Origin: an uncultured Rhodothermales bacterium
Lineage (GTDB): Bacteria; Bacteroidota; Rhodothermia; Rhodothermales; UBA10348
DNA length: 37,443 bases
Direction of reading: 5' to 3'
NCBI GenBank assembly: GCA_964512485.1
Contig: CAZEHJ010000031.1
Location: 1-37,443 of the forward strand
The position numbers and the translations under genes are program-made. Shown piece after piece: positions 1 to 30,495 of the stretch. The first letter of the stretch is position 1. Each line of letters begins with the position of its first letter. Below the pieces are notes generated by a model that saw only the letters and a program-made list of their open reading frames with translations, was not told the origin of the DNA and ran no database searches.

Positions 1-2
1 AA

Positions 3-2627
3 GGAGTGCTTGTAATCAGATTCGCCGATTTTGCGAAGCTGTCCCACTCCAAGTTTGTATCTATAGTTATTGCTTATGGGATCTGGAACACGCGCAACAA
101 GGCTGTTTGCCGGATTTCGCGTGTGAAGGAAAAACATGAAGGACACGCCCTTTCTCATGGCCGGAGTCACGACGGCTACGGCTTCAACTCTGGCGGTTGT
201 GAATTCAATGTGTCCGGCATCTACGAGCCGAGAGAAGGATGCATCGGCTGGTGTATCCGCAATGAATCCACTCTTCTGAACAGGTATGCGATCACTTTCC
301 GCAACGACGAGGTCACCTGATTCGATACCACGTTCAGCGGCATCATCAGGGTGAATCTCGACAAAGTTCGCCGGCCAACGATCCATGATCTGGGGTCGGC
401 GCAGCATATCATCGAATCCGGACTGCCAGATTTCACCAATCCGCCCGTTGGTAATCCACAGTTCACCCTCGCGGGGAGTCATGTATTCATAAAAGTCCGC
501 GAAATGCGACCATGGGCTCTTCATGAAGTTGGCTTTTCCACTCTGTGACTTGAATGCAGTCAGAATTTTGGAGTGAATAGTCGGGCCTTGAGGAGTATCC
601 AGATCCAGCGTCGAGTCGTGTAATCGCTTCGTACCTACCAGCTCTCCGTCGGCATATCGGACAGGTCCCTGAATTCCGGTAGTGCCGTAGGTCTTCAAGA
701 GATCATGACCTTTGATTCCGTCGCGTTTGGCCTTCCAGACGAGGGGGAAATAGTCCTTCCTCGAGCCGCGAGTGAAACGAGCGGCTTCTTCGAATACGTC
801 ATTCGAGTCTTCCCAGTCGAAGCCGGGGTAGCCCATTCGCTTGCCAACCTGGGCCGCGATCCACCAATCGGGTTTTGCTTCGCCTGGAGCATCATAGAAC
901 TTCGAATAGAGCCTGATTCTACGCTCGCCGTTGGCTCGGGCAAAGTCATCTTCGCCCCATGTGGCGGCAGGGAATATGATATCGGCATACGTGGAGCCCA
1001 ACGGCTCGCGCAGATATATATCCTGATTAACCACAACCATATCACCGGCATCAGCTCGTCGGATCAATTCTTCGGCAGCTGTTTCGGGGCTCGTGATCTG
1101 ATGTTCGCTGCCCCGAGTGAGGCCCAGGAAGGTCCTCATCAATCCCTGGGACGCCGTCATGCTTCCCAACCAGGTCGTTCCGACGGCCCAGGCAAAACGT
1201 ACGTTTCCGGATTCGATCCATCGATCCAGATCCAGGGGTTTGCGCCGACGTCCGGCGAATTTTTCAGGAGACTTCTCGAGAGGATATCGCCCGCCTTTGA
1301 TTCCACCGCGCTGATGGCCGCCGAAGCGAGAGATTACCTGTCCGGGCCGGTTTCCGGTTCCGCAGATGAGGGCCAAAGCTCCAATGGAGGCCGTATTCAG
1401 ATAGTTGTTGGACCAGTAATTTCCCTTTTCAATTCCGATGGATGTTTTAGGCCTGGACCCGTCAATTCGTGGTTTGGCCATGAGCTCAGCAGCACGAATG
1501 ATTCCTTCGCGGTCTACGCCCGTAATCCGTTCTGCGTTGTCAAGCGTGGCTTCTTCAACCGACAGCAGCCAGGACTTATAGTCGTCGAATCCTCGAGTCT
1601 GAAATGCGCCCCAGGTAGTTCGCCATTGCCAGGGTGTATTTCTGGTGCCTTGCCCGAATCCTGAATCCGATTCCCATTTATTGGATGTGTAGCGGTCGAT
1701 CCAGGCTCGATCTTCCCAGCCCTGTTCGATGATGTAGCGGGAGATGGCGAGGTGGAGTATGGTATCGGTTCCGGGAATGAGCCAGAGGTGCAGGCCGCCT
1801 GTTTTTTCTGCCCAGGCAACCCCCGTCGTTTTCCGTGGCACGATTGAAATTACTTTCATTCCTCGCCGGATGCCTTTCATGATCCACTCATTCCAGATCA
1901 CGGTTTTCGTCTCGAACGGATCGGTGCCCGACATGACCAACGTGTCCGCGAGTGACCAGTCCTCGTACGATGCGGCGAAATTGTCAAATCCTGTGTCCCG
2001 GAAGCCGGGCGTGTCCTCAGCGGTGGAGGGATTGTCATGGAAGGCGAACGCGGGAGTTTCGACGTGTCTCAATGCCAGTTTCGTGAGCGCGTACGTGTTT
2101 TCGAAGAACTGGTACGAATACATCTTCATCGCCCAGGAGTGCTCGCCGTACGTGTTGATCACGTGTTGGCCCACTTTTGCGACCGTGTCCAGAGCCAGGT
2201 CCCAGGATACCGGAACGAGTTCTCCATTGATGCGCATCAGAGGCGTCTTCAGGCGGTCTGCCGTCGCCGAGTCCGGGTTAAAGCATTTTTTGGCCAACGA
2301 GCCGCCACGAATACTGTGGTCGCCAAACAGATTAACCGCTTCAGCTTCAGCATCCGGAATAATCACCACATTGTGTGGAGATCCGTTGTGCGAGACCACG
2401 TTATGCTGATTTGGTCCCACCCAGAAACCCGTTCCGGGATCGCGTGGATAGTCGACGCCCATGGCGTTCTCACTCGCCGCCATGCCACCTTCGCTCCCAA
2501 CGGGCCAGCGGTAGACCTTGTAACCGCAACCCACGATGCAGTAGTCACACGCGGTAGTCAACACATCCGCGTCAGCTGGGGGCAGAGGTGTTCTTGAATT
2601 ATCAGGGGTCATGTTCTTGGTCGTCAT
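3..2627 (-). CDS. aioA: Mo-bisPGD catalytic (large) subunit of the arsenite oxidase AioA / iodate reductase IdrA clade; C-terminal ~10 codons lie beyond the window start (partial)
   Basis: Hand translation of the minus strand from ATG at 2625-2627 (4 nt after the Rieske gene stop) reads an open frame to the window edge. The ORF track omits it because there is no in-window stop. N-terminus is MTTKNMTPD...TACDYCIVGCGYKVYRW, carrying the Cx2Cx3C [3Fe-4S] motif characteristic of AioA. Later blocks (LHLWLIPGTDTILHLAISRYIIEQGWEDRAWIDRY, GERRIRLYSKFYDAPGEAKPDWWIAAQVG, C-terminal FMFFLHTRNPANSLVARVPDPISNNYRYKLGVGQLRKIGESDYKHS) are collinear with Alcaligenes/NT-26 AioA as I remember them. The plus-strand ORFs in this span (705..1664, 1744..2409, 2037..2597) are G/S/R-rich antisense artefacts. 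The symbol aioA is given at family level; the adjacent CCP genes make an IdrA (iodate reductase) identity at least as likely. Confidence 0.8.
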   Translation of the reverse strand, partial: MTTKNMTPDNSRTPLPPADADVLTTACDYCIVGCGYKVYRWPVGSEGGMAASENAMGVDYPRDPGTGFWVGPNQHNVVSHNGSPHNVVIIPDAEAEAVNLFGDHSIRGGSLAKKCFNPDSATADRLKTPLMRINGELVPVSWDLALDTVAKVGQHVINTYGEHSWAMKMYSYQFFENTYALTKLALRHVETPAFAFHDNPSTAEDTPGFRDTGFDNFAASYEDWSLADTLVMSGTDPFETKTVIWNEWIMKGIRRGMKVISIVPRKTTGVAWAEKTGGLHLWLIPGTDTILHLAISRYIIEQGWEDRAWIDRYTSNKWESDSGFGQGTRNTPWQWRTTWGAFQTRGFDDYKSWLLSVEEATLDNAERITGVDREGIIRAAELMAKPRIDGSRPKTSIGIEKGNYWSNNYLNTASIGALALICGTGNRPGQVISRFGGHQRGGIKGGRYPLEKSPEKFAGRRRKPLDLDRWIESGNVRFAWAVGTTWLGSMTASQGLMRTFLGLTRGSEHQITSPETAAEELIRRADAGDMVVVNQDIYLREPLGSTYADIIFPAATWGEDDFARANGERRIRLYSKFYDAPGEAKPDWWIAAQVGKRMGYPGFDWEDSNDVFEEAARFTRGSRKDYFPLVWKAKRDGIKGHDLLKTYGTTGIQGPVRYADGELVGTKRLHDSTLDLDTPQGPTIHSKILTAFKSQSGKANFMKSPWSHFADFYEYMTPREGELWITNGRIGEIWQSGFDDMLRRPQIMDRWPANFVEIHPDDAAERGIESGDLVVAESDRIPVQKSGFIADTPADASFSRLVDAGHIEFTTARVEAVAVVTPAMRKGVSFMFFLHTRNPANSLVARVPDPISNNYRYKLGVGQLRKIGESDYKHS

Positions 2628-2631
2628 ATAG

Positions 2632-3186
2632 TTACCCCGCCACATTCTGAGTTCGGCCAAAAATCAGGCCCATCATGGCGGTGGCATAGATCCAGTCGCC
2701 GTCGGTTTCGAGAACGACCTGGGGAAGGGATTCTGTTGCGTGTCCGGCGATCACCATTCCATGCCTGCGAAGATCGAAGGTGGTCAAATGGGAAGGACAT
2801 GGGCCGACGGCTGCGTGTTCGGCCTGATAGGCGCCGTGCAGTGGACCTCCCATGTGAGGGCATCGTGTGTGAAACGCTACAATGTCTTTCGCCGGTCCGA
2901 CGCCGCCGCCTGCTTCCGAATCCATCTGAACAAGAAAACAGGAAGAGTTTTCGTCTGGGTATTCGAAATAGATCGATTCGTGTCGTTTCAGATCAGAAAA
3001 TTTTGCGACGCGAACGCGATCATACGGGCTCACCCATGCGGGTATTTTCATTGCCTGCGCAACGCCCGGAATACCGGTCAACACGACCGTTATCGTCGCC
3101 GCACCCGATGTTTTCAGGAACGAGCGTCGACTGACACCGCCATCCAGAAGTGGACATGGCTCATTTGTTGATTGCGTATCCTTCAT
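2632..3186 (-). CDS. aioB: Rieske [2Fe-2S] small subunit with Tat signal (AioB/IdrB-type)
   Basis: 184-aa ORF. It carries a twin-arginine motif SRRSFLKTSGAA and Rieske boxes CPHMGGPL ... CPSH (CxH-x19-CxxH). It sits immediately upstream of the Mo subunit (4-nt gap), and its ATG overlaps the TGA of the upstream CCP gene (ATGA at 3183-3186). Confidence 0.8.
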   Translation of the reverse strand: MKDTQSTNEPCPLLDGGVSRRSFLKTSGAATITVVLTGIPGVAQAMKIPAWVSPYDRVRVAKFSDLKRHESIYFEYPDENSSCFLVQMDSEAGGGVGPAKDIVAFHTRCPHMGGPLHGAYQAEHAAVGPCPSHLTTFDLRRHGMVIAGHATESLPQVVLETDGDWIYATAMMGLIFGRTQNVAG

Positions 3187-4373
3187 TTCGACCCCATCGT
3201 GTCATCGATCGATCCATACTCTGGAAGAATGGGTCGTTCCGTTTTGATTTCTTCTCCTGACGTGCTTTCCAGGAACGCGACCAGTTGGCGCTGTTCGGTA
3301 GCTGTCAACCCAAGCGGTCTGATCAGATCCGTTTTGGTCCCGAAATCAAAATTGACCATGATCTGATCGTCGCGGCCTCCATCGTTGTAAAATTCGACCA
3401 CCTCCTCAAGCGTGTAGAATGCACCGTTATGCATGTACGGTGCGGTATACAACAGATAGCGCAGCATCGGCGTCCTGAATTTGCCCATGTCCACCGTCCG
3501 CTTGGTCACGTAATAGAGACCGAGGTCGGTTTTGACGGTCCGGTAGATCTCCTCCGTCACCCCCTTGGCGTATTGCTCATACCTGAACGTGATCTGCCTT
3601 AACTGATCGGTTTCGAAGGCAGGATTTTCGGGCACTCCGAGATTGTAGTATTTCTCATCGGTCAGCAGGGGACCGTCGTGGCACTGAATACATTTGCCTT
3701 TACCCGTGAAAATTTCCATTCCCGCGATGGCATCGTTTGACAGAGCAGTCAGGTCACCGCGCAAGTACCGGTCATATGGGGTATCCGTCTGAATAAGGGT
3801 TCGCTCGTACGCTGCTATTGCCCGCCAGGCATCCTCCAGATCTGGCCAGGGTGTTCCGAATACTTCGCGGAACATGGCTACGTACTGAGGAACCTGCCGC
3901 AGTCGCTCTTCCATCATGTCCCGTTCGCCATTACCTGCTACGGCACCCGAAGCGGCCGAAACCGCCTGAGCTTCCAGACTCTTTGAGGCCCCATCCCAGA
4001 ACAATTTGGCGAAATACGCCGAATTGATGATGGTCTGGCAATTCCGCCAGTGGGCCGTTCCGTTGTACCCACGGCACAGATCTGCTCCGTCCGTCCAACC
4101 AAATTCGTCACTGTGACAGTCGGCGCAGCTGATCGAGGCGTCACCAGAAAGCCGGTTGTCGTAAAAAAGGACTTTTCCGAGCTGTACTTTTGGATCGTCG
4201 AGTTGCGGATAGCCCAGTTCATCAACAGCTTGAGAGTTGTCTGAAGGTATGGACGGAGGTCCGAGAGGCGTCAGTTCGCGAAACGCCGGCCCGTTCGCCA
4301 GTCCGGTGATCAGGACAATTACAATCAGGGCCGGCAGGAGAGGTAGAAAGGGGACATTGCTGAATCGTTTCAT
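3183..4373 (-). CDS. dihaem cytochrome c peroxidase (CCP/MauG) family protein, long type (A1); IdrP-like
   Basis: 396 aa with signal peptide. It has two CxxCH motifs (CADCH, CIQCH) and CCP-family blocks LGKVLFYDNRLSGDASISCADCHS, FRTPMLRYLLYTAPYMHNG and LVAFLESTSGE, matching Pseudomonas CCP blocks from memory. The ATG is verified. Confidence 0.8.
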   Translation of the reverse strand: MKRFSNVPFLPLLPALIVIVLITGLANGPAFRELTPLGPPSIPSDNSQAVDELGYPQLDDPKVQLGKVLFYDNRLSGDASISCADCHSDEFGWTDGADLCRGYNGTAHWRNCQTIINSAYFAKLFWDGASKSLEAQAVSAASGAVAGNGERDMMEERLRQVPQYVAMFREVFGTPWPDLEDAWRAIAAYERTLIQTDTPYDRYLRGDLTALSNDAIAGMEIFTGKGKCIQCHDGPLLTDEKYYNLGVPENPAFETDQLRQITFRYEQYAKGVTEEIYRTVKTDLGLYYVTKRTVDMGKFRTPMLRYLLYTAPYMHNGAFYTLEEVVEFYNDGGRDDQIMVNFDFGTKTDLIRPLGLTATEQRQLVAFLESTSGEEIKTERPILPEYGSIDDTMGSK

Positions 4374-4374
4374 A

Positions 4375-5400
4375 TCAGTTTCGGGCCTCCCGCCAGTTTT
4401 TCATCGCCTGATAAGGCGGTGGCTCCGGAATTTTCACTTCGGGTAGCGCCCCGGACAGGCTTTCCAGGAACGCCACCAGATCATCTAGCTCCGTATCGCT
4501 CAAATCCAGACCATCTCCACGATTATTGTAAAATAAAACCACTTCCTGCAGCGTGGAAAACACGCCATTATGCATGTAGGGACCTGTATCGGCAACCTGA
4601 CGCAGCCCGGGGGTGATGAAGGCCCCCACATCGTCGTAATTCTTGGTTACGATGAACCGGCCGACGTCGCGTCGGGTTTGCATGTATCCCGGAACACCCA
4701 TGTTCTTGATGAACGCGCGATAGGTTGCATGTCGAAGTGGCTCTTCGAATACAGCCACATTTTCCGGTACGCCCGTGTTGTGGGCCATGCCATCGGTGAA
4801 ATCGCTGTCTGAGTGACAGCTGGAGCATGCTGCTTTACCTTCGAAGAGCTGTCGTCCTCGTTCGCCACTTTCGCTCATCGTTCCAAGGTCGTACGGGGAG
4901 TCGCCCGTTGTAAGCGTATTCTGGAAGGCAGCGATAGCTTTGAGTGTGCCACCGAACGATGGCTCAGACCCCAGCGCGTCTTGATACATCTGAACGTACT
5001 CGGGCACCTGTTTCATGCGCTCAAGCAGCAATCGACCGTCGAGATTCAAGAAGTGTGTTTCGGTGATGCCATCCCGAACCAGAGTTTCCACATCCGAGCC
5101 CACAAGTCGGCCGTCCCAGTAGAACGACGCATTGCGACTCACATTCAGCAGCGACTTGGCATTTCGGAACCCATCCGAACCCGGATAGGCTTCCGATAGC
5201 GCTTCACCGTCCGTCCAGGCAAACTCTGGACTGTGACAGGTGGAGCAGCTCATGCTTCCGTCACCGGATAGTCGGGGGTCAAAAAACAGGTAGCGCCCGA
5301 GATCGATCAACGCCTCATTATTGTCTTCTTCAGACTGAGGGTTGACAAAACCGTTGAGCAGCAGGAGAGCGACCGGCAGGAAGATGACGACCGCAAACAA
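4375..5400 (-). CDS. dihaem cytochrome c peroxidase (CCP/MauG) family protein, short type (B1); IdrP-like
   Basis: 341 aa with CSTCHS and CSSCHS motifs and blocks LGRYLFFDPRLSGDGSMSC, ITPGLRQVADTGPYMHNG and LVAFLESLSG. Its stop (4375-4377) is 1 nt from the A1 ATG (TGATATG junction). The start codon at 5398-5400 is TTG, with no in-frame ATG near the N-terminus. The N-terminus is hydrophobic and signal-like. Confidence 0.75.
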   Translation of the reverse strand: MFAVVIFLPVALLLLNGFVNPQSEEDNNEALIDLGRYLFFDPRLSGDGSMSCSTCHSPEFAWTDGEALSEAYPGSDGFRNAKSLLNVSRNASFYWDGRLVGSDVETLVRDGITETHFLNLDGRLLLERMKQVPEYVQMYQDALGSEPSFGGTLKAIAAFQNTLTTGDSPYDLGTMSESGERGRQLFEGKAACSSCHSDSDFTDGMAHNTGVPENVAVFEEPLRHATYRAFIKNMGVPGYMQTRRDVGRFIVTKNYDDVGAFITPGLRQVADTGPYMHNGVFSTLQEVVLFYNNRGDGLDLSDTELDDLVAFLESLSGALPEVKIPEPPPYQAMKNWREARN

Positions 5401-5642
5401 TCGGGGAGTTTTTGAGCACGCTCTGATGGTATTCTCCGGATAAGTTCAGGAATACACATCACGCTCTACAGACTTGAAATGGAGCCGGGTAGGGACTTCC
5501 AAGACGTGACTCGCCTTTCAGAGTTACACGCGCGGAATAAGTTAAATCTCAAGAAAGCAGGGCAATTTTGCAACCGACTTTCGGAGGATTCAGACGGCAG
5601 GGAAACCCCTATTTGCACATCCCTCCAAAAAAGCCCCAATGC

Positions 5643-6848
5643 CTAATTACCACTATTTGCGGGGGTAGCAAAGACGTCATATTCGGGAAGAACCGGACGC
5701 TCGATTTTGATCTCTTCTCCACTCGTACTCTCAAGGAAAGCAACCAGTTGACGTTTTTCCTCATCCGTCAAGCCAAGAGGCTTCAGAAGATCCGAGCGGG
5801 TACTGCTACCGGCCAGCGCTTCGAAATCGTTGGTTCCACCACCATCATTGTAGAAATCAACTACTTCTTCCAATGTGAAAAAAGAACCGTTATGCATGTA
5901 TGGCATTGAGTATTTCAGGTAACGCAGCGGCGCGGTTCTGAATTTCCCCATGTCTTCGGGCTGCTTCGTTCCCAGATACAGTCCGAGGTCGGATTTTACA
6001 ACATCATATATCTCAGGCGGAACGCCTCGACCAAATTGCTGGAAGCGAAACGTGATCTGAATGAGCGGATCAGTGGCAAGCTTCGAATTGTCAGGTACAC
6101 CAACATTGTGGAATTGCTGGTCGGACAGCAGTGGACCGGTGTGACACTGAATACAGGCAGCCTTTCCAAGAAAAAGGCCCATTCCTGCCTTGGCGTCGTC
6201 CGTGAGTGCCGTCTGGTCTCCTCGCATGAAACGATCGAAGGGAGTATCCGGCTGAATAATGGTTCGTTCAAATGCCGAAATCGCCCGCCAGATGTCGTCT
6301 CCTTCCGGCCATTCCGTCCCGAACACTTTCTCGAATCGGTCGACGTATTCAGGAATCTGACGTAGTCTTTCCTCCATCATATCCGGATGGCCGTGTCCTT
6401 CTACTGCGCTTGTGGCAGCGCCTTTCGCCTGGTCTTCCAGTCGGTCGGATCGTCCATCCCAGAAAAGTTGGTCCTGATACGCGGAATTGACCACGGTCGG
6501 ACAATTTCGCCAGTTACCTGTCCCCTGATAGGCCAGACACAGATCCTGTCCGTCACTGAAGCCGAACTCGTCGCTGTGACAATCCGCACAACTGACGGAC
6601 GCATCTCCTGAAAGACGGTTTTCGAAGTAGAGCATTTTGCCGAGCTCAACCTTCGGATCGTCCGAAAGGGGGAATCCGTTTTCGTCTACAGATTGAGGAT
6701 TGTCCGACGGAATCGGGGGGGCTCCAAGAGCCGCAAGAGAAGGCGCCTCCTGCTTCACGGCGCTTACCGAAATCGTAGCAGCGGCGATGACAAAGAGTGC
6801 AAGCACCAAAAACAGTGGGGCGAAAGGAATACGTAGAAGGGCTCTCAT
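5643..6848 (-). CDS. dihaem cytochrome c peroxidase (CCP/MauG) family protein, long type (A2), paralogue of 3183..4373
   Basis: 401 aa with signal peptide. It carries CADCHSDEFGFSDG and CIQCHTGPLL motifs and blocks MGKFRTAPLRYLKYSMPYMHNG and QLVAFLESTSGEEIKIERPVLPEY, nearly identical to A1 blocks. The ATG is verified. Confidence 0.8.
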   Translation of the reverse strand: MRALLRIPFAPLFLVLALFVIAAATISVSAVKQEAPSLAALGAPPIPSDNPQSVDENGFPLSDDPKVELGKMLYFENRLSGDASVSCADCHSDEFGFSDGQDLCLAYQGTGNWRNCPTVVNSAYQDQLFWDGRSDRLEDQAKGAATSAVEGHGHPDMMEERLRQIPEYVDRFEKVFGTEWPEGDDIWRAISAFERTIIQPDTPFDRFMRGDQTALTDDAKAGMGLFLGKAACIQCHTGPLLSDQQFHNVGVPDNSKLATDPLIQITFRFQQFGRGVPPEIYDVVKSDLGLYLGTKQPEDMGKFRTAPLRYLKYSMPYMHNGSFFTLEEVVDFYNDGGGTNDFEALAGSSTRSDLLKPLGLTDEEKRQLVAFLESTSGEEIKIERPVLPEYDVFATPANSGN

Positions 6849-6849
6849 A

Positions 6850-7884
6850 TCAGTTGCTCACCTCTGCCCAGTTTTGACTTACTTCGTATGGGGGCATTTC
6901 CGGCTCTTCAATGTGTGGAATCGTCCCGGAAAGACTCTCCAGAAACGCGATCAGATCAGACGATTCTTCAAGGCTCAAATCCATTCCACCGTCACTGTAG
7001 AAGGCAACTACGTCATCGAGCGTATCAAATATTCCGTTGTGCATGTAGGGCGCGGTGTCCGCGACCTGTCGCAGATCTGGAGTGATGAACGCAGCCCTGT
7101 GCCGCTCGTCTCCCGTTTGGGCCAAATGTCCCGGATCCTCGCGAAGGGACATGTGATCGGGCACGTTGTGATCTTTCAGGTAGAGCCGAAACGCCGTGTG
7201 CCGTAACGGATCGGCGGTGATGTCCGGGTTTTCCGGGACTCTCATGGCATGGGGCAGTCCATCGGTGTATCCCTCGCCGCTGTGACACGAAGCACAATTG
7301 GATTCGAAAACTGCAGATCCGCGCTGTGCAGTTTCACCCATAGGAGTGCTGCCTTGGGTGGTAAGCGTATTCTGAAAGGCTTCCAGAGCCCGGATGGCTC
7401 CTTCATATGAAGGAATTTCAGCCAATGATTGTTCGAAGAGATCCACGTACGCTGGGATCTGCTTCAAACGCTCGGTCAACAGTCTGTCGTTAAGATTCAG
7501 GAACAGTTTGCCGCCGATCATCTCGGCCGTGACGTTGGCCACGGACGCACCTGCAGGGCCGCCATCCCAGTAATAATTAGATCGTTGAGATACATTCAGG
7601 AGCGATTTCGAATTTCTGAAGCCGTCTGCTGCCGGATAGGTTTGAGAGAGCGCCGTGCCGTCAGCCCACGCATGATCTGGGTCATGACACGTGGCACAAC
7701 TGATGCTCGCATCTCCGGAAAGCCGATTGTCGAAAAATAGATACGTTCCCAATTCGACGAGCGCATCCTGATCAACCTGCGGCTGAGGGGTACATCCGTC
7801 CAGTAATAGTGTAAAGAAGGGAACGAGAAGCAATGTCGGGGCAATTCCAAGTCCCGAACGAACGCTAATCGATGGTAAACTCAA
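6850..7884 (-). CDS. dihaem cytochrome c peroxidase (CCP/MauG) family protein, short type (B2), paralogue of 4375..5400
   Basis: 344 aa with CATCHDPDHAWADG and CASCHSGEGYTDG motifs and blocks ITPDLRQVADTAPYMHNG and LIAFLESLSG. The same TGATATG stop/start junction with A2 occurs at 6846-6852. The start at 7882-7884 is TTG, and it overlaps the upstream gene stop by 20 nt. Confidence 0.7.
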   Translation of the reverse strand: MSLPSISVRSGLGIAPTLLLVPFFTLLLDGCTPQPQVDQDALVELGTYLFFDNRLSGDASISCATCHDPDHAWADGTALSQTYPAADGFRNSKSLLNVSQRSNYYWDGGPAGASVANVTAEMIGGKLFLNLNDRLLTERLKQIPAYVDLFEQSLAEIPSYEGAIRALEAFQNTLTTQGSTPMGETAQRGSAVFESNCASCHSGEGYTDGLPHAMRVPENPDITADPLRHTAFRLYLKDHNVPDHMSLREDPGHLAQTGDERHRAAFITPDLRQVADTAPYMHNGIFDTLDDVVAFYSDGGMDLSLEESSDLIAFLESLSGTIPHIEEPEMPPYEVSQNWAEVSN

Positions 7885-8611
7885 AGTTTGACTCTGCGGA
7901 TGATTGGCTGGTTACGGTTACCGTCTGGGTTTGAATTCCAAGTTTTGGGTGCCATACGGATACTTCATAGGTACCCGGAGGGACATCGGAAAGTTGAAAG
8001 TTGCCTGTTTCATCCACCACTGTGGCGTAAGGATTGTCACTGGCAAAAATCCATCCCTGCATGAAATCGTGTGAATCACATTCAAGACTTACGAGGTGAC
8101 TACGCGCAGGATGCAGTACTTGTGGTACGGGGCCGAGATCGGGCTGGCTGATGTTGAAAAGAGAGCGGCGGGCTCGTCCGATCAATTCATATCCATGGAT
8201 ATTGTGCAGGGTCGAATCACTGTTGATGATGTCCATTTCCGAGGCACGGCGCATCACCTGGATGTTGGGCGTGAACGCACACACTTCCTGATTGACAAAC
8301 TCTCCCGGGGCTGCCATATCCCACGATTTTCCCTCGGAGATGTCCTCTATAAACACCACGACGCGTCGAAGGGCTCCGTCGTCTGCAACATCGTATTCCG
8401 TTCTTTCTCTGTAGCCGAGTCCACAGATTTCGGCATCTTTCGTGATCAGAAGTCGAAGAGGGGCCGGAGCATCGCCACCGAACATGACTCGTCCTTCGAT
8501 CGAGCCCCCGTTAGCGACCTCGATTTCTGTGTATTCCTGCGCGAAAGCCGACTGGTCGGACGGAGCAGCCAGGAAAAGAGCGATTGCGAGAATGAGTGAG
8601 GATTTTTTCAT
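7865..8611 (-). CDS. periplasmic cupredoxin-like (type-1 Cu motif) protein with CarbPepD_reg-like beta-sandwich C-terminus
   Basis: I take the start at the internal ATG (8609-8611) that gives the signal peptide MKKSSLILAIALFLAAPSDQSAFA; the ORF track's upstream extension has no sensible N-terminus. This ATG lies 1 nt after the stop of the upstream propeller gene. It contains ...LHNIHG...(about 40 aa)...SLECDSHDFMQGW, i.e. H-x~40-C-x2-H-x2-M. The CxxHxFMxG block resembles the amicyanin Cu-site loop CTPHPFMRG. The C-terminal GTYEVSVWHPKLGIQTQTVTVTS is a CarbPepD_reg-like strand pattern. Confidence 0.55.
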   Translation of the reverse strand: MKKSSLILAIALFLAAPSDQSAFAQEYTEIEVANGGSIEGRVMFGGDAPAPLRLLITKDAEICGLGYRERTEYDVADDGALRRVVVFIEDISEGKSWDMAAPGEFVNQEVCAFTPNIQVMRRASEMDIINSDSTLHNIHGYELIGRARRSLFNISQPDLGPVPQVLHPARSHLVSLECDSHDFMQGWIFASDNPYATVVDETGNFQLSDVPPGTYEVSVWHPKLGIQTQTVTVTSQSSAESNFEFTID

Positions 8612-8612
8612 G

Positions 8613-10034
8613 TTAGTGGCGGATAACTGCTGCTCCCATTCCGGAAGCATATTCCTCTGTTTCGATAACCTTGATGATCTCCTGAGACTCAATATCAATG
8701 ACGAGCACCGTCCCGATATTTGCGTTGTCTCCCAGGTCATACCTCGGATGGTAGACGTGATTTTCCTTGCTGTGTCCTTCAGGCATCGCAAGGTTTCTGT
8801 TTGCAATGTAGACAAATCGGCCATCCGGAGATGCTGCGCTACCATGAGGTTGAGCCAGACCGTTGACCCCCTCGATCACTTTGGCAACTTCACGCTTCTC
8901 CATGTCCAGAATGGTGATCTGATTTGTCCAGTTGTTTCCGAAATACACCCACTTTCCGTCGGCTGTATAAATCGGGTGCCATGGCGCACGACCCACACCG
9001 ATGGTGTCCGTCAATACGACACCTTCAGTCGAGGCCAGGTCGAAAATAAAAGCATTGGAGGTCACTTCAGACGTGCCCACCATGGTCGAACCATCCGGCG
9101 AAATGGTGAATTGGATGAACACGTGCGGCCGATCTCCTTCGATGTCATCAAAAACCAGATCTCCACCCTCGTCGCGATAGGTGGCCACTCGATTCTGAGC
9201 CAGGCTGGAGATGTACACCTCGGATCCATCGTGATTGGTAAGAAGCGCGTGAGGGCGCTGCATCAGCACACCGATTTCCTCCGCTTCCATCGTCTCGCGA
9301 TCAACTTGAACGACGCTTTCTGGCGGAGAAACTGACATCATCGAACGGCCTGCATACAGCCATGGACCGGCTGGGTCCAACGCCAGAAGACCCGGACGAA
9401 CGGCATCGACCTGACCGACCAGATTATTGTCACGATCAAATTTCAGAATCTTGTCGTCCATGATGAGCGACAGATACCAGAACGAACCATCCTGTTCGAC
9501 GGCGATGTGATGCGGCATTGAGAACTCATTGAAACCCAATTCAACGAGATCCACCATACGCACGACCTGATTGGTGTTCATGTCGATGACGGCAACCATA
9601 CCGGCTCCCTGATTGGCGACATACAAGCGAGGGTCATCTGGATCGCTGAACGGAATTTCACCGTCCGATGCTGGAGCACCCTCATCAATCCACGCGGAGA
9701 TGGTTGCGATCTCCTCTTCGGTGAGTGCATCCGATCCCAACTCTTCTGGATGGGATCCCTCCCGATACTTCGTCGCGAGTTCGACGAGAAGGCTGTTATC
9801 GGCATCGTATGCGATAACAGCTTCACCGAAGTCTGAGCCCTGAAAGAGATTCTCCCATGAGTCCAGTCTCAGACCTGAGGCGGCTTCCGGGCCTGCATGG
9901 CACGAGACGCATTTGTTCTGAAAAATAGAATCAACCTCGCTCCAATCTGCCTGTACAGGCTGACGATCAAGCGACCATCCGGCCATCAACAGGATGACCG
10001 ACGCTAGTACAATGGTCTGTCGCAATGAAATCAT
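8613..10034 (-). CDS. PSCyt1-type cytochrome c domain fused to YVTN/cytochrome-d1-like beta-propeller
   Basis: Start is chosen at ATG 10032-10034, giving signal peptide MISLRQTIVLASVILLMAGWSL...VQA. The ORF-track GTG at 10094 would add 20 unlikely residues. The N-terminus IFQNKCVSCHAGPEAASGLRLDSWENL...LTEEEIATISAWIDEGA fits the planctomycete-type cytochrome c (PSCyt1) pattern. The remainder has repeated LYVANQGAGMVAVIDMNTNQVV-type YVTN propeller blades. Confidence 0.7.
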   Translation of the reverse strand: MISLRQTIVLASVILLMAGWSLDRQPVQADWSEVDSIFQNKCVSCHAGPEAASGLRLDSWENLFQGSDFGEAVIAYDADNSLLVELATKYREGSHPEELGSDALTEEEIATISAWIDEGAPASDGEIPFSDPDDPRLYVANQGAGMVAVIDMNTNQVVRMVDLVELGFNEFSMPHHIAVEQDGSFWYLSLIMDDKILKFDRDNNLVGQVDAVRPGLLALDPAGPWLYAGRSMMSVSPPESVVQVDRETMEAEEIGVLMQRPHALLTNHDGSEVYISSLAQNRVATYRDEGGDLVFDDIEGDRPHVFIQFTISPDGSTMVGTSEVTSNAFIFDLASTEGVVLTDTIGVGRAPWHPIYTADGKWVYFGNNWTNQITILDMEKREVAKVIEGVNGLAQPHGSAASPDGRFVYIANRNLAMPEGHSKENHVYHPRYDLGDNANIGTVLVIDIESQEIIKVIETEEYASGMGAAVIRH

Positions 10035-10259
10035 GAAATTAAATGAAAATGGTCCTGTCCAGACGAATATCTGACGACGATAGACGGGTAGCACTAGTTA
10101 CAGTTTCAATTCGACAGAAAATGTGGGATAAACCCTACCCTATCGCCCCGTTGCGTGTCACTTTGATTGACTACGAGACAAACTCCGTGCCTGGGGCGAA
10201 TCCGCCTCTGAAACGTGATTTAGGTTCCCGGCAGTGTTTCAAATTGAGTACAGCGGTGT

Positions 10260-11672
10260 TCAATTCAATCCAACTGAACTCGAATTGGCACCGAAGACTG
10301 TGTCGATCTCGATTCCGCAGTCATTCAGAAAGCCCGTTGGCAAAGTCCCACCGGCAAATATGAACACAAAATCATTCGAAATCGACAGTTCAGTGCCGTC
10401 TTCACCTTCCAAAGTGACATCCCCGTCAGAAATATCAGTCACGTTGGTCTGGAGCATCAGCTGAACTCTTCCATTTTGAACGGCTTCGTCTAAACGGGCT
10501 GAATTGTCCGGCTTGATCCGTGAAAATGAATCCCTACGGTAGGAGAGATGAACCCCAGTGTTCGCTTCACCACACAGGCTTAACGCGGCCTCGACCGCTG
10601 AGTCGCCGCCTCCGACAACCAGAATTCGGTCCCCGGAGAAGTGCGATGGGTCTTTGAGCGAATAAAAAACGTTGGGTCGGTTTTCGCCGGATACTCCAAT
10701 TTTTCGCGGGATCCCCCTGCGACCGATCGCCAGAACCACATTTTGTGCCCGATATGAATTGGTCGAAGAGGTAATCTCGAAATACTCCGCACCCACTTTT
10801 TGGACTGAGTGAATCATCTCGTGAACCTGAACCTGAAGGCCACATTCTTCAACAACACCCGTCCACAATTGCAATAATTCTTCCTTCAGATATTCCCTTG
10901 ACGTCATGGAGGTTGCGTCGGTAAGTCTCATGGGCTCAGTCATCACCAGCTTTTTTCGAGGGTAATTGAGGACCGTGCCTCCGATATCATCTTTTTCAAT
11001 TACCAGATAGTTCAGGCCCTTTCGATGTGCTTCGAGAGCAGCCGCGAGACCAGCGGGTCCACATCCAACGATCAGGAGGTCGAGAATCTCTGAATTCAGC
11101 TCGGGTGTTATCTGTTCAACACACTGTCGACCTTGTTCGAATGCGTTGCGGATCAATCCCATCCCGCCAAGTTCGCCGACAACGAAAAGTCCGGGCACAT
11201 TCGTTTCGAAGTTTTCCTTGATGCGGGGAAGGTCTACTCCTCGTTTGGAAGTTCCGAACACGAGCTGAATAGCATCGACCGGACATGAACGCTCGCACAA
11301 TCCGTGGCCAATACACCGAGCTGGAGAAACCGGTATGGCCTGCCCCGAAATCAGTCCGAGAACATTTTTTTCAGGACAGACGCTCACACAATTCCCGGTG
11401 CCAATGCACTGATCCGGGTTGACGACGGGATGGAGGGATGCTGGCCGATACAGCCCGAGTTCCAGAGATTCTGCCTGAGCATCGATTACTGCGCGTTCCT
11501 GCCGGACCATGCGCACGACGTACGGCAGGACGAAAATCGCCGCCAGCACAAAGAATATCAGCCATATCAAAAGTGTCGAACTCAGAAGCTGATGCCATAG
11601 TTGATGAAAAAAGTAGAGGATGTTACGCTCGAACTCAGGTGGGCGCGTTGCCTGATGGACAGGTATCCCCAC
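10260..11672 (-). CDS. membrane-anchored 2x[4Fe-4S] ferredoxin domain fused to TrxR-like FAD/NAD(P)-binding oxidoreductase (ferredoxin-NAD(P)+ reductase-like)
   Basis: Two CxxCxxCxxxCP motifs are present (CIGTGNCVSVCP, CIGHGLCERSCP). Dinucleotide folds LIVGCGPAGLAAALEA (FAD) and ILVVGGGDSAVEAA (NAD(P)H) are present, with no CxxC redox disulfide. There is an N-terminal TM helix LLSSTLLIWLIFFVLAAIFVLPYVV. The start is uncertain: the ORF-track start is GTG at 11672 and overlaps the upstream OM-protein gene by 90 nt. A TTG (codon 35) just after that gene's stop, or the ATG at 11510, are alternatives. The TM helix lies between the OMP stop and ATG 11510, arguing for an upstream start. Confidence 0.65.
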   Translation of the reverse strand: MGIPVHQATRPPEFERNILYFFHQLWHQLLSSTLLIWLIFFVLAAIFVLPYVVRMVRQERAVIDAQAESLELGLYRPASLHPVVNPDQCIGTGNCVSVCPEKNVLGLISGQAIPVSPARCIGHGLCERSCPVDAIQLVFGTSKRGVDLPRIKENFETNVPGLFVVGELGGMGLIRNAFEQGRQCVEQITPELNSEILDLLIVGCGPAGLAAALEAHRKGLNYLVIEKDDIGGTVLNYPRKKLVMTEPMRLTDATSMTSREYLKEELLQLWTGVVEECGLQVQVHEMIHSVQKVGAEYFEITSSTNSYRAQNVVLAIGRRGIPRKIGVSGENRPNVFYSLKDPSHFSGDRILVVGGGDSAVEAALSLCGEANTGVHLSYRRDSFSRIKPDNSARLDEAVQNGRVQLMLQTNVTDISDGDVTLEGEDGTELSISNDFVFIFAGGTLPTGFLNDCGIEIDTVFGANSSSVGLN

Positions 11673-13177
11673 TTGTCCATGCGGAATCGTACCGATGCGC
11701 CGGCAATGTGTGACAGGGCCAACGGGCCAAGCTGATCAACTGCAAGAAGAGAGTATTCTAACCCGAGAGTAAGTCTTCGGAGTTCTTTTTGAAAAGAAGT
11801 GGAGCTGTATAAGGTGCGCCCTCCGGGACGCTCGAACACACTTGTTGAATTGGAAATCCGAAATGGCATCCAGCCTGGTTGCGTCCGGAACGATGCCGTT
11901 ACAGAGTTGCTCTTTTCTGAGCCCGAAAACGAATTGGATGACACGGTTAGCCCCACAAGATGGGTTCGTTTTTGCCAGGTTATCCCCGCAGAGGTCTGAT
12001 TTTTCCTGGCCGAGTAGCTTGCGTCGGTTCGCCAGTATGGGAAGTATTGTCTCGATCCATACCGGCCTGAAAGCCTCAAGGTCTCCGATATGGGCGAGCT
12101 CGCTCGAACGTAAAATCGACTGACATCCCATTTTCCGTCGATAGGTGACTCGTCGATCTGTAGGGAGGTGCTCAGGCGTGTCCTCCCGAGTCGGGATTTT
12201 TGTTCAATGGAAATAAAGGAATAGGGTCGAAGCATCCGGCTTCCATCGATTCGAGTAAAAGCAGTCATCAAGGAGGTTGATCCTCCAGTGTGTTTTTTGC
12301 TCACATCTGAAAAGACGGAAATCTTATTGATGTCAGTCTGGAAGGCTTCACTGTATCGATCCGGTTCAAATCCACCCGATACTCCGAAAAGGAAATCACC
12401 GGTTTTGAACGAAACATTGAGGCCATCCCAATATCCCCCTGCCGGGGTGTGACGCTCTCTGAAACGTCCGGCTTCCAGCGACAATCCCGAGGAGATCTGG
12501 CTCTGATATTTGAGCTCGTACATCCTGAAGGATCCTGAGCGAGAGACGAGGTCTTGCGAACTGAATCGCCTCGATCCCCTGGCACTGAACATGAAGCGGC
12601 CACTACCCGGAAGTCCTTCCACGCGCATTCTCAACGATGAAACTGGATTCATGTACTGGCGAGAAGACGAACGTGTGTCGGTGAATTGGCCTTTGACCTC
12701 AGAGACCGAAGCGGTCAGCGAAGCGCTGTAATACCCGTGGACCTGCACACCCGACGATCTTGGGTCGGTCCGAACACCAACCGGACGTCCGAGAATGCTC
12801 CGACGCTCTTCAGCCAGATCGAGGTCTTGTTCAGGTCCGTGCTCTTTTCGCGGGCCAACCAGGACGAGTTCATTTCCCACTTCCAGCGACAGAGGGTCCA
12901 AAAGCCAGACCAGAAGGAGAGACGTCGATGACTTACCCGCAACACGGGAAAGAGCCCGTGTATCCTCATTTTGAAGCACCATCAGCGTGTCGCCCCGTTC
13001 CCACTGCGCATCACTGACATCGACATAGATGCCTCGGGCCTGGACCCGGCTCACCACCACCCTGAGGGAATCGGTCTCGCTACGTGAATCTGTGGGCGAT
13101 TGGGCCGTCGCATCATTCGCAATGAGGAAGCAGACCATAATCGTCGCAAGGAGTCGGAGCTTAATCATCGTCGTCAT
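11582..13177 (-). CDS. putative outer-membrane beta-barrel protein (porin-like), signal peptide, C-terminal Phe
   Basis: 531 aa with signal peptide MTTMIKLRLLATIMVCFLIANDATAQ (ATG verified). Alternating hydrophobic/polar beta-strand pattern throughout, and a C-terminal ...TFFINYGISF ending in aromatic F, typical of OM barrels. I recognise no specific family. Confidence 0.6.
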   Translation of the reverse strand: MTTMIKLRLLATIMVCFLIANDATAQSPTDSRSETDSLRVVVSRVQARGIYVDVSDAQWERGDTLMVLQNEDTRALSRVAGKSSTSLLLVWLLDPLSLEVGNELVLVGPRKEHGPEQDLDLAEERRSILGRPVGVRTDPRSSGVQVHGYYSASLTASVSEVKGQFTDTRSSSRQYMNPVSSLRMRVEGLPGSGRFMFSARGSRRFSSQDLVSRSGSFRMYELKYQSQISSGLSLEAGRFRERHTPAGGYWDGLNVSFKTGDFLFGVSGGFEPDRYSEAFQTDINKISVFSDVSKKHTGGSTSLMTAFTRIDGSRMLRPYSFISIEQKSRLGRTRLSTSLQIDESPIDGKWDVSRFYVRASSPISETLRLSGRYGSRQYFPYWRTDASYSARKNQTSAGITWQKRTHLVGLTVSSNSFSGSEKSNSVTASFRTQPGWMPFRISNSTSVFERPGGRTLYSSTSFQKELRRLTLGLEYSLLAVDQLGPLALSHIAGASVRFRMDKWGYLSIRQRAHLSSSVTSSTFFINYGISF

Positions 13178-14261
13178 CCTCCTTCCCGTCCGGATGGCAA
13201 CTCAGGCACGCGAGACTCTCGTACACGTAATCCGGTTCGTCATCGTGCTCGTCATCCATCTTGTCCTTACGATGTTCATGACAATCGATACACGTGAAGC
13301 TGGTCATATCGGGGGCTGCTTGATGGCAGTCTGAGCAATTATCCCATTCTCCTTTGTGCTCACCGGAATAGATGGGGAAAAATGGAGCATCGTGATCAAA
13401 ATCCGAGGCACCGTCCCAATCATTCTGATTGTGACACTCAAGACAATTCAGCGGAAATCCGGAATTGCGATGTTCGTCTTCATAGTCGGCTTGATGACAG
13501 GCGTAGCAGTCGTTCTGGTCCAGAGCAGCAAACACAAGCTCAAACGAGGGTTGGATATGACAGCTTTCGCATCCCGCAAACTCGTGTGCCCCAATCAGTT
13601 CAAATCCGTCTGAAAGGAGTGAGTGTTCGGGGAATATGGCGTCCGGCCAGACGTGTTGTGTGTGACAGTCCTCACACTCCTGCGAGAATCCATTCTCTTC
13701 GTGGGGGATGACCGTCGTTTCGAGATAGGCTGATTCGTGGCACGTGATACAGGTGGGCTGGTCCCCGAAGTACCACCCTCCCAAATCGTCGTCATGACAA
13801 CTTTCGCAGGCGATGACTTCGTGCGATCCGATGAGGGGAAACGACGTGTCCAGATGTATCGCGAATCCGTCGATGTCACGGAAGGAACGTTCATTATGGC
13901 AGGTCTCACATGTGGGGACCAGCTTCGAATTATGAACATCTTCGTGACAATCCGCACATTCCCGAATGATGGCCGATTCTGGCTCGAATTCCAGGCCTGA
14001 ATGACATGAAGCACATGCCGCTGTCTCGTGTGCAGCCAAAAGGGCGAACGCTGCGTCATTTTCATGATCGAAAGCGGCCTGCGGATCCATCGGTGTCCAG
14101 GCATTGGACGAATGGCAGTCGCTACACGCGATTGTCGTGTCCCAATCACCGTGAGGGCTGTCTATCGGGTTGTCTTGTGCAGAGGACTGGCTGGCCCCCA
14201 TCAACGCCGAAAAGATCAGACAGAATATTGTCACTCTTTTTCTCATGGAGTTATTCTTCAT
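13161..14261 (-). CDS. multihaem c-type cytochrome, 13 CxxCH motifs, signal peptide, poly-Asp C-terminus
   Basis: 366 aa. I counted 13 CxxCH motifs, many in the paired arrangement FDHx...PLxGxHx...CxxCH. The protein ends ...CLSCHPDGKEDDDDD. The ATG is verified, and its start overlaps the upstream gene stop by 11 nt. Confidence 0.85.
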   Translation of the reverse strand: MKNNSMRKRVTIFCLIFSALMGASQSSAQDNPIDSPHGDWDTTIACSDCHSSNAWTPMDPQAAFDHENDAAFALLAAHETAACASCHSGLEFEPESAIIRECADCHEDVHNSKLVPTCETCHNERSFRDIDGFAIHLDTSFPLIGSHEVIACESCHDDDLGGWYFGDQPTCITCHESAYLETTVIPHEENGFSQECEDCHTQHVWPDAIFPEHSLLSDGFELIGAHEFAGCESCHIQPSFELVFAALDQNDCYACHQADYEDEHRNSGFPLNCLECHNQNDWDGASDFDHDAPFFPIYSGEHKGEWDNCSDCHQAAPDMTSFTCIDCHEHRKDKMDDEHDDEPDYVYESLACLSCHPDGKEDDDDD

Positions 14262-29169: not shown

Positions 29170-29277
29170 GTCTGGGTAGTAGGGACCTATTTGAACGCCA
29201 CACGTTGAAGCACTCGCTACTCGAGCAGCACCGGAGTATCGACAAATCACTGGCCAACACCAAACCTTTTGGTTCTA

Positions 29278-30495
29278 ATGCTCAGCCCACAGGAAAGAGC
29301 GAGATACAGCAGGCATCTTCTTCTCCCACAGGTGGGGGAGGAGGGGCAACTGAAATTGAAAAGATCGTCCGTTTTGGTGGTCGGGGCAGGAGGTCTTGGA
29401 TCTCCTGTTCTGATGTACCTCGCGGCAGCAGGTGTTGGCCGGATCGGTATCGTGGATTTCGATGAGGTTGCAGAAAGCAATCTTCACCGTCAAGTTCTGT
29501 ACGGGTCCTCTGACGTGGGATCCTCCAAGCTGGAAGTAGCATCCAGGAAACTCGAAGAGATTAATCCACACGTGGAAGTTGTGCTCCATCCCGTTCGGCT
29601 CGACAGAACAAATGCGATGGAGATCATCGGCGCCTATGACGTGGTCGCAGATGGTACAGATAACTTCGCCACCCGGTACCTGGTCAACGACGCCTGTGTT
29701 CTGACCGGCACGCCGAACGCATTCGCTTCAATTTATCGATTCGATGGGCAAGTATCCGTGTTTGCGGCGGAAGACGGTCCCTGCTATCGCTGTCTTTTCC
29801 CTGAGCCTCCGCCGGCAGGATCTGTTCCGTCTTGCGCAGAAGGAGGAGTGCTCGGCGTACTGCCGGGAATTCTTGGGACCCTTCAGGCGGCAGAGGCCAT
29901 AAAGTTGATTACGGGCATCGGTGAACCCCTCATCGGTCGCGTTTTGATGGTCGATGTGATGAGCATGGATTTCAAACGACTTTCATTCGGCAAGGATGTG
30001 GAATGTGCCGTTTGTGGAGAGCGTCCAACCGTCGATGAATTGGTCGACTATGAAGCGTTCTGTTCCGGGGTCCAAGAAAGTGGATCATCCGGGGTGGAAA
30101 CGGCATTTTCGGACAGTTCGGAAAGTCCGCCACACCCAGACACCCAGCATTCTTCCGTGTTTTTCTCACCTGGAGTTCCCGAAATCGACGTTCACGAATT
30201 GCACGAAATGATGCAAGGCGAAGATGACTTTCTGCTTCTCGATGTCAGACGAGCCGAAGAGTTGACCATCGCCGACATCGGCGGGCAACTTCTGCCCATG
30301 AATGAGTTGCCGGAGAAAATAAGCTCCGTTGCTCCCGACAAGGCCCGAAAAATCGTCATGATGTGCCGATCCGGCGCGCGTTCGGCCCGCGCCGTTTTGT
30401 GGATGCGCGGACAGGGATACGACAACGTGTTCAATCTGGCCGGCGGTATCATTGCCTGGTCCCAAAAAATTGATTCATCCGTCGCCACCTACTGA
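29278..30495 (+). CDS. moeB: MoeB/ThiF-type adenylyltransferase fused to C-terminal rhodanese domain (MOCS3-like, molybdopterin-synthase sulfurylase)
   Basis: Start at ATG 29278 (MLSPQERARYSRHLLLPQVGEEGQ); the ORF-track TTG at 29269 adds 3 residues. It has the nucleotide-binding loop VLVVGAGGLGSPVLMYLAAAGVG, the CYRCLFPEPPP and CAVCGERP Zn/Cys motifs, and a C-terminal rhodanese domain with active-site CRSGARS. Confidence 0.8.
   Translation: MLSPQERARYSRHLLLPQVGEEGQLKLKRSSVLVVGAGGLGSPVLMYLAAAGVGRIGIVDFDEVAESNLHRQVLYGSSDVGSSKLEVASRKLEEINPHVEVVLHPVRLDRTNAMEIIGAYDVVADGTDNFATRYLVNDACVLTGTPNAFASIYRFDGQVSVFAAEDGPCYRCLFPEPPPAGSVPSCAEGGVLGVLPGILGTLQAAEAIKLITGIGEPLIGRVLMVDVMSMDFKRLSFGKDVECAVCGERPTVDELVDYEAFCSGVQESGSSGVETAFSDSSESPPHPDTQHSSVFFSPGVPEIDVHELHEMMQGEDDFLLLDVRRAEELTIADIGGQLLPMNELPEKISSVAPDKARKIVMMCRSGARSARAVLWMRGQGYDNVFNLAGGIIAWSQKIDSSVATY

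Follow-up and report, generated by a model that had tools for sequence, protein, structure and literature searches.

The stretch of DNA analysed here comprises 37,443 nucleotides of contig CAZEHJ010000031.1 from an uncultured Rhodothermales bacterium (hereafter the window). We regard it as highly probable that at its left end stands the upstream half of a periplasmic operon of the iodate-reductase type (idrP2-idrP1-idrB-idrA) from a marine Rhodothermales-like bacterium, in whose lineage the idrP2-idrP1 pair has been duplicated in tandem. The genes idrB and idrA stand for a Rieske small subunit and a molybdenum (Mo) catalytic subunit, and idrP1 and idrP2 for two di-haem proteins of the cytochrome c peroxidase (CCP)/MauG family. 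The new element is the second idrP2-idrP1 pair, which is rare and lineage-restricted; the pair itself is already known. Dissimilatory iodate reduction is a proposed control on iodine speciation in ocean oxygen-minimum zones, and the role of IdrP1 and IdrP2 is its least understood part. The window offers a natural experiment on that role, as the P2-P1 unit has been duplicated and one copy has diverged at otherwise invariant pocket residues.

The operon and its assignment

All genes of the cluster lie on the minus strand. In the direction of transcription the order is B2-A2-(242 bp)-B1-A1-Rieske-Mo, with four intact di-haem CCP/MauG-family genes set directly on the Rieske and Mo genes, as an earlier note on this DNA had described. 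The distal pair consists of a short, idrP2-like gene, B2 (6850..7884; 344 amino acids (aa), TTG start, Pfam CCP_MauG E 5e-30), and a long, idrP1-like gene, A2 (5643..6848; 401 aa, E 8e-47). The proximal pair consists of B1 (4375..5400; 341 aa, TTG start, E 7e-38) and A1 (3183..4373; 396 aa, E 2e-43). Each of the four proteins has two CxxCH motifs, among them CATCH and CASCH in B2, CADCH and CIQCH in A2, and CSTCH and CSSCH in B1. Next come the genes for an IdrB-like Rieske [2Fe-2S] small subunit (2632..3186; 184 aa, TIGR02694 116.6 bits, Pfam Rieske and TAT_signal) and an IdrA-like molybdopterin catalytic subunit (1..2627; 875 aa visible, Pfam Rieske_3, Molybdopterin and Molydop_binding). The latter gene is cut by the window edge, and about 12 C-terminal residues are missing, judged from 887-aa full-length homologues.

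The start of each A gene is coupled to the stop of the preceding B gene through the same junction, AACTGAtATG, and in the sequence ATGA the stop of A1 and the start of the Rieske gene overlap; both had been pointed out earlier and are seen in the sequence. The alignments that the note had proposed gave 59% amino acid and 65% DNA identity for A1 and A2, and 51% and 64% for B1 and B2, with 39% identity between A and B. Most of the sequence blocks listed there as shared by the paralogues are exact, with two corrections: A1 reads GKFRTPMLRYL rather than GKFRT.PLRYL, and the B proteins have DLG or ELG rather than ALG. With the copies this far apart (59% and 51% in protein, about 65% in DNA) and the same layout found in independent assemblies, an assembly artefact or a recent repeat was ruled out.

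The spacer between the pairs (5401..5642) is the sole long gap in the operon. It contains no terminator-like site, and the single promoter-like match, at 5348..5320, falls within B1, not in the spacer. Compared with two related loci of the same layout (L081 and L084), the spacer shows poor conservation and no conserved element, and an Rfam search returned no family match anywhere in the window, spacer included. These searches gave no sign of a regulatory element in the spacer. Comparison of the spacer with the region upstream of B2 by blastn and tblastx yielded chance-level words only, with no remnant of a duplication junction.

The motifs of both enzyme subunits are those of iodate reductases. 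Read from its translation, the Rieske protein has a signal for twin-arginine translocation (TAT), SRRSFL, and the pattern CPH-x18-CPSH. In the Mo subunit, C27-x2-C30-x3-C34-x70-S105 is invariant throughout an alignment of 18 diverse homologues. These agree with the motifs described for Azoarcus sp. DN11, CX2CX3CX70S in IdrA and CXHX18CX2H plus a TAT signal in IdrB (PMC10149662). Hundreds of IdrA-clade homologues, spread over Rhodothermales, Planctomycetota, Methylomirabilales, Nitrospinota, SAR324 and Proteobacteria, share 56–90% identity with the Mo subunit, which scores 1150–2070 bits within this clade and 255–294 bits against solved AioA. On both identity and bit scores the catalytic subunit thus belongs to the IdrA clade. 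It is 64% identical to IdrA of a Candidatus Methylomirabilis metagenome-assembled genome (MAG), bin48 (locus L013), whose cluster has been published as idrP2, P1, B, A of Candidatus M. iodofontis (PMC10989891).

Gene order points the same way. Reyes-Umana et al. defined the IdrA clade by synteny with two CCP genes, which are absent from AioA neighbourhoods, and the CCP-linked clade includes proven iodate reducers (PMC8692401). Clusters from an alphaproteobacterial MAG and a SAR324 MAG reduced iodate when expressed in E. coli (PMC13455634). In the window, two di-haem CCP genes adjoin idrB and idrA in the order idrP2, idrP1, idrB, idrA, with the B-A pair present twice. Because homology (clade identities and motifs) and CCP synteny agree, the assignment of the locus as idr is well supported; iodate activity in this lineage would be expected by homology. 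The earlier reading of the locus as idr-like rather than aio-like is borne out by clade identity, motifs and gene order, and its premise, that adjacent CCPs separate iodate reductase from aio, is a published criterion (PMC8692401). The idr cluster is thereby extended to Rhodothermales-like bacteria.

To place the four di-haem proteins, we took the open reading frames (ORFs) called in 80 species-level IdrA-clade loci and scored each against the window proteins. Of the 80 loci, 70 have one B and one A, 64 with the order B-A-Rieske-Mo, four with B and A fused and two with another order, and B-A lies directly upstream of Rieske-Mo in 68. Contig ends truncate the other ten loci, apart from one (L079) that looks degraded. 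A neighbour-joining (NJ) tree of 158 CCP domains split cleanly into an A family and a B family, with the window proteins in the expected families. The published idrP1 of L013 falls in the A family and its idrP2 in the B family, and strain DN11, judged by its consecutive accession numbers, agrees, which makes A IdrP1-like and B IdrP2-like. These are two old paralogous families, and exactly one member of each stands beside almost all IdrA-clade Rieske/Mo pairs. A1 shares 55% identity with the L013 idrP1, and B1 49% with its idrP2. The heterotypic long/short pair is accordingly not special to the window; it is the canonical idrP2-idrP1 pair. Two expectations of the earlier note did hold, namely that the CCPs belong with IdrP1 and IdrP2 rather than with ordinary peroxidases, and that A and B are linked to Rieske/Mo genes in other genomes.

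The survey also turned up variants of the cluster. In Planctomycetota and Verrucomicrobiota idr loci (L005:2-6370, L006:2-7198, L007:2-7174, L009:2-6172), the B-type domain lies at the C-terminal end of an ORF longer than 2000 aa, which extends past the start of the locus, and the A-type protein of such loci has long extensions at both its N- and its C-terminus. A third, more distant CCP-family gene stands about 3–4 kb downstream of Mo in one locus annotated as deltaproteobacterial and two as gammaproteobacterial (L026:15772-17010, L030:16893-18110, L033:16792-17982). In Candidatus Entotheonella (L079:8507-12637) the Mo gene is split in two ORFs, A is short and no B was seen; this is possibly a decaying idr cluster. 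Across phyla, in about 70 loci, nearly every B-type gene has an Asn codon directly before its stop (window 4375-4380 and 6850-6855).

Origin and divergence of the second pair

None of the 80 species-level loci carries a second idrP2-idrP1 pair. A search for further loci with a doubled pair, suggested in the earlier note, found B-A-B-A-Rieske-Mo in L081/L082 (Mo 90% identical; Logan and ENA assemblies) and in L084-L086 (Mo 81%), which are the NCBI MAGs GCA_018662045.1, GCA_018668265.1 and GCA_900632225.1, labelled 'Bacteroidetes Order II incertae sedis'. The claim that two such pairs had not been reported holds for the literature searched, although the layout was already present, unremarked, in these three public MAGs. 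A single pair occurs in the relatives L083 (Mo 82%), L002 (an uncultured Rhodothermales bacterium, 78%) and L090 (73%). Relative to the single A of L002 and L083, A1 is 75% and A2 59–62% identical; relative to their single B, B1 is 64–67% and B2 47–48% identical.

Bootstrapped NJ trees of A and of B have the same shape. One clade, at 100%, holds the distal copies; a second, at 94–95%, holds the proximal copies and the single-pair orthologues; and the two unite at 100%. The proximal pair is thus the orthologue of the single pair of relatives, and the distal pair is its sister clade in both trees. Because the A and B trees are congruent with 94–100% bootstrap, the pair was duplicated as a unit inside this Rhodothermales lineage; the NJ topology, which implies later loss in L002 and L083, could be a long-branch artefact. 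Unit duplication was also what the earlier note had argued, from the likeness of the two B-to-A junctions; the conclusion stands, but the junctions do not prove it by themselves. The 1-nt stop/start junction is common to the whole Rhodothermales clade, single-pair members included, and is therefore inherited and not diagnostic of duplication as a unit; other phyla have 5–20-nt spacers with GGAG-like (Shine-Dalgarno-like) sequences. A horizontal origin of the distal pair was ruled out on the current NJ trees, in which proximal and distal copies are monophyletic at 100% for A and B alike.

Synonymous sites are saturated in all comparisons, so we report the ratio of the proportions of non-synonymous and synonymous differences, pN/pS, in place of dN/dS. 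Between the window and L081 or L084, pN/pS is 0.14–0.45 and all genes are intact; both pairs are under purifying selection. A2 evolves at about the rate of A1. B2 is the fastest-evolving member of the cluster, 61% (L081) and 51% (L084) identical to its orthologues, with pN/pS 0.35–0.42.

Of the columns that are at least 90% conserved across the other family members (110 in A, 77 in B), 13 in A and 15 in B are changed in the distal copies, against 2 and 5 in the proximal ones. The distal A replacements W93F, H108N, S132R, G143S, N148H and A182I are the same in all three distal orthologues. This pattern, with the replacements alike in every distal orthologue (FFF, NNN, RRR, SSS, HHH), speaks for a change of function under selection more than for decay or dosage alone. 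The second, diverged module would most likely handle a different oxidant, partner or condition, and mere added gene dosage is less likely.

It is rather unlikely, in our judgement, that the distal pair is simply a redundant copy kept for dosage, or a decaying one, with no distinct function. Such a course would suit its birth by tandem duplication, the presence of only one pair in L083 and L002, and the pace at which B2 changes. Yet the distal reading frames, both haem motifs and a conserved tyrosine discussed below have been kept despite saturated synonymous sites (pN/pS 0.15–0.45), and the shared replacements at family-conserved sites of the three distal A orthologues speak for a selected change of function more than for drift.

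The probable A/B partnership and its proposed haem chemistry

Natural fusions suggest that A and B work together. B and A are one protein of 733–793 aa in four of the 80 loci (L021:7194-9392, L031:7141-9372, L039:7082-9376, L048:7002-9380), in which a signal peptide and a B domain are joined by a linker of some 40 residues to an A domain that lacks its own signal peptide. A database search with one fusion recovered about 95 clusters of full-length B-A fusions (P0121-P0215, 700–1000 aa), always B then A. Three fusions were looked up; two stand directly upstream of Rieske-Mo and one (P0186, L088) away from any Idr genes. Some Elusimicrobiota B-A fusions also have WD40/propeller domains. An AlphaFold model of one fusion, built with 83 fused sequences, has a mean predicted local distance difference test score (pLDDT) of 94.3 and a predicted template-modelling score (pTM) of 0.91, which indicates a confidently fixed arrangement of the modelled B and A halves. 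IdrA, IdrP1 and IdrP2 co-migrate in active native-gel bands (PMC10149662).

Given this strict co-occurrence, the fixed-order fusions, the confident fusion model and the published co-migration, A and B very likely act together, probably as a hetero-module; of the readings considered this is the best supported, and the heterodimer proposed in the earlier note gains by it. The roughly 90 related loci provide comparative evidence for P2 and P1 as one such unit. The competing view, that A-type and B-type proteins are independent homodimeric peroxidases that are merely co-transcribed, we find improbable. Solved bacterial cytochrome c peroxidases (bCCPs), the nearest structural matches, are homodimers, and the fusion P0186 stands apart from Idr genes. 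Against this view stand the presence of one A and one B in 70 of the 80 loci, adjoining in 68, the recurrence of fusions in fixed B-A order in about 95 protein clusters, and the confident fusion model. The two proteins also differ in their distal pockets: Gln136, the equivalent of bCCP Gln104, is kept in 79 of 81 A sequences, and B has its own motif there.

The chemistry of the putative module turns on a tyrosine. Tyr329 of A1, at the end of PYMHNG..TLEEVV.FY, sits 17 residues past the calcium-site proline, which by known residue numbering is presumably the position of Met275 in Pseudomonas aeruginosa CCP and of Tyr294 in MauG. The match to MauG Tyr294 comes from arithmetic on alignment coordinates rather than a displayed residue-level alignment; Tyr329 also falls on the bCCP Met position and aligns with the tyrosine of MbnH (6E1C). 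All 81 A sequences and 74 of the 77 B sequences carry this tyrosine (155 of 158), the four window proteins included. Met-His ligation is typical of canonical bCCPs, and Tyr-His ligation is found in MauG and BthA, where it steers towards bis-Fe(IV) chemistry; BthA is nonetheless a good peroxidase (PMC6405878). The window proteins have the two CxxCH motifs of a canonical bCCP and, going by Foldseek matches of the related fusion protein, its CCP fold; by alignment they depart from it in the Met-His ligation of the high-potential haem. Because a MauG-type Tyr appears to replace the bCCP Met ligand, the 'peroxidase' label for IdrP1 and IdrP2 seems doubtful. This family-wide tyrosine would call into question the 'cytochrome c peroxidase' label used in two published mechanistic models.

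A mapping of the bCCP distal His71 onto an invariant Tyr103 was dropped, as the loop alignment cannot be trusted without coordinates. A Cys pair (DLC...RNC; A1 residues 100 and 112 and their A2 equivalents) flanks the loop beside the N-terminal haem in the A-type proteins of this lineage and in 28 of 81 overall, is mostly Ser elsewhere, and could form a disulfide.

The tyrosine raises another alternative, equally improbable: that IdrP proteins are MauG/MbnH-like maturases that oxidise a protein partner, IdrAB or the cupredoxin-like protein encoded upstream, rather than peroxide removers, the second pair then having a second target. The position of the Tyr at MauG Tyr294, the preference of Tyr-His ligation for bis-Fe(IV) chemistry (PMC6405878) and the ranking of NCBIfam models, with MbnH and MauG as best matches, would all suit a maturase. 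However, every score (124–216 bits) is far under the family cut-offs (363–444; TIGR03791 for MauG, TIGR04039 for MbnH), and among the window ORFs scanned with Pfam there is no mauA/mauB or mbnP substrate gene. Foldseek with the B-A fusion model placed it nearer bCCPs (template-modelling (TM) score 0.83–0.87) than MbnH (0.77) or MauG (about 0.69). BthA, moreover, shows that Tyr-His enzymes can be good peroxidases (PMC6405878), and IdrP1 and IdrP2 remain with the active enzyme (PMC10149662), which would be unusual in a maturase. On the missing substrate genes and the low NCBIfam scores, IdrP-type proteins are best placed as a distinct Tyr-bearing branch of the superfamily and not as MauG or MbnH orthologues. 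A literature search found no paper linking IdrP1 with MauG.

Neighbouring genes, proposed mechanism and relation to known systems

Directly upstream of B2 is an accessory gene (7865..8611, minus strand, start probably 8611) for a secreted protein of 248 aa with a signal peptide. Its structure model combines a cupredoxin-like domain (H136...C178-x2-H181-x2-M184) with a transthyretin/CarboxypepD_reg-like beta-sandwich. H136, C178 and H181 are invariant and M184 is present in at least 90% of sequences, so that both the fold and the His...Cys-x2-His-x2-Met pattern are those of a type-1 copper cupredoxin, and the Cys-x2-His-x2-Met pattern is like that of amicyanin. Pfam (E<=10) and PDB sequence searches matched only the C-terminal, CarboxypepD_reg-like beta-sandwich; the cupredoxin domain was recognised through conserved-residue analysis and the structure model. 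Homologues occur in 45 of the 80 loci, and directly upstream of the first CCP in 20 of the 64 with enough sequence. We infer that the protein is a blue-copper electron carrier for the cluster. A literature search returned no paper combining iodate, idrA and cupredoxin, and this candidate carrier goes unmentioned in the idr literature searched.

Next upstream is a gene for a cytochrome c (Pfam PSCyt1) with a Lactonase/YNCE-type beta-propeller (8613..10094, minus strand). Only L002 and L081-L086 have homologues of it, in each case upstream of the cupredoxin-like gene, and it is possibly a lineage-specific redox partner. Beyond it, at 10260-15951 on the same strand, are four genes, for a 470-aa flavoprotein with Fer4 and Pyr_redox domains, a 531-aa ORF without a Pfam match, and two multihaem cytochromes c (366 and 566 aa) that show MtrC/c3/c7-like motifs; the flavoprotein gene and the 531-aa ORF are in synteny with L084. 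These genes may be an electron-input or outer-membrane conduit module tied to the cluster. A Porin_5 gene recurs beside idr (L081:11976-13052, L083:9953-10975, L084:12680-13756 and about 20 other loci), where it follows Mo in members of the Rhodothermales clade, whereas several other phyla have it upstream of the cupredoxin-like gene; a window equivalent would lie beyond the left edge. Farther off, at 29269-30495 on the plus strand, a ThiF and rhodanese protein resembles the molybdopterin-synthase adenylyltransferase MoeB; a moeB gene has also been noted near the idr cluster of Azoarcus sp. DN11.

From these parts we propose that IdrB would carry IdrA across the membrane via the TAT route and that IdrAB would reduce iodate in the periplasm. 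B and A would form a hetero-oligomeric four-haem module that removes H2O2 or another reactive oxidant from iodate reduction, with electrons probably supplied by the cupredoxin-like protein. As both haem proteins appear to carry the MauG-type Tyr-His ligand set, the module may use a bis-Fe(IV)-type state rather than classical Met-His peroxidase chemistry. A stronger version, to which we give little credence, is that IdrP2/IdrP1 is an obligate heterodimeric Tyr-His four-haem module, cupredoxin-fed and acting directly in iodine/oxygen-intermediate chemistry rather than as a generic H2O2 scavenger, with the distal copy retuned around the peroxidatic haem (W93F, H108N, N148H and others). If this were true, one Idr enzyme would be served by two chemically distinct oxidant-handling modules.

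Several points weigh against an iodate-reductase operon with a duplicated, functionally shifted pair. Iodate reduction has been demonstrated in proteobacterial isolates and the two E. coli-expressed MAG clusters only (PMC13455634), in clades about 57–59% identical to the window Mo subunit, and both the Mo and the Rieske subunits pass NCBIfam cut-offs for arsenite oxidase. The trees put the duplication before the split from the single-pair relatives, which calls for two losses (L002 and L083) or a long-branch artefact of neighbour joining. The different role of the distal pair is proposed from sequence divergence, the heterodimer is carried over to the unfused window proteins from fusions and the monomer model of one fusion, and the Tyr ligation is read from an alignment, with a predicted fold closer to bCCPs than to MauG. 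We nevertheless hold to the idr assignment with a duplicated pair. That the cluster is an arsenite oxidase (AioBA) operon joined by accessory CCPs by chance is highly improbable: the NCBIfam equivalogs do match (arsenite_ox_L 444.7 bits, cut-off 359; arsenite_ox_S 116.6 bits, cut-off 95.7) and database homologues are named 'arsenate reductase (azurin) large subunit', but solved AioA scores far below IdrA-clade members, AioA neighbourhoods are without CCPs whereas the CCP-linked clade holds proven iodate reducers (PMC8692401), and the window matches the published order idrP2, P1, B, A (PMC10989891).

The likeness to arsenite oxidase (PDB 1G8K, 4AAY) lies in the build of the enzyme, a small Rieske subunit that bears a TAT signal, paired with a large subunit with molybdenum-bis(pyranopterin guanine dinucleotide) and a 3Fe-4S cluster; the difference lies in the distant clade (255–294 against more than 1150 bits) and in published Aio neighbourhoods, which have no adjoining di-haem CCP genes. 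Canonical bCCPs (P. aeruginosa CCP, N. europaea CCP, Shewanella CcpA, Geobacter MacA) give the best TM scores and share the two c-type haems, the inter-domain Trp and, in A, the Gln104 equivalent. IdrP proteins differ from them in the predicted Tyr in place of the Met ligand of the electron-transfer haem, and in being two non-equivalent paralogues, always together or fused, where a bCCP is a single homodimeric protein. With MauG, MbnH and BthA they share the Tyr 17 residues past the calcium-site Pro (PYMHNG...FY), and of all solved proteins MbnH alone aligns with A1 from end to end, but their scores are far below the cut-offs, preMADH or MbnP genes are not found nearby, and the fold is less MauG-like than bCCP-like.

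The closest relatives are the known idr clusters of Pseudomonas sp. SCT, Denitromonas sp. IR-12, Azoarcus sp. DN11 and Candidatus Methylomirabilis iodofontis, with which the window shares the four gene families, their order, and the 3Fe-4S, Rieske and TAT motifs. It differs from them in its two idrP2-idrP1 pairs, its Rhodothermales-like host and its 1-nt B-to-A spacer, and in its Rhodothermales neighbours, the upstream cupredoxin-like and cytochrome c/propeller genes and, in relatives, a downstream Porin_5. The window therefore refines a known system without changing its category, and its value is the handle it offers on IdrP1/IdrP2 function.

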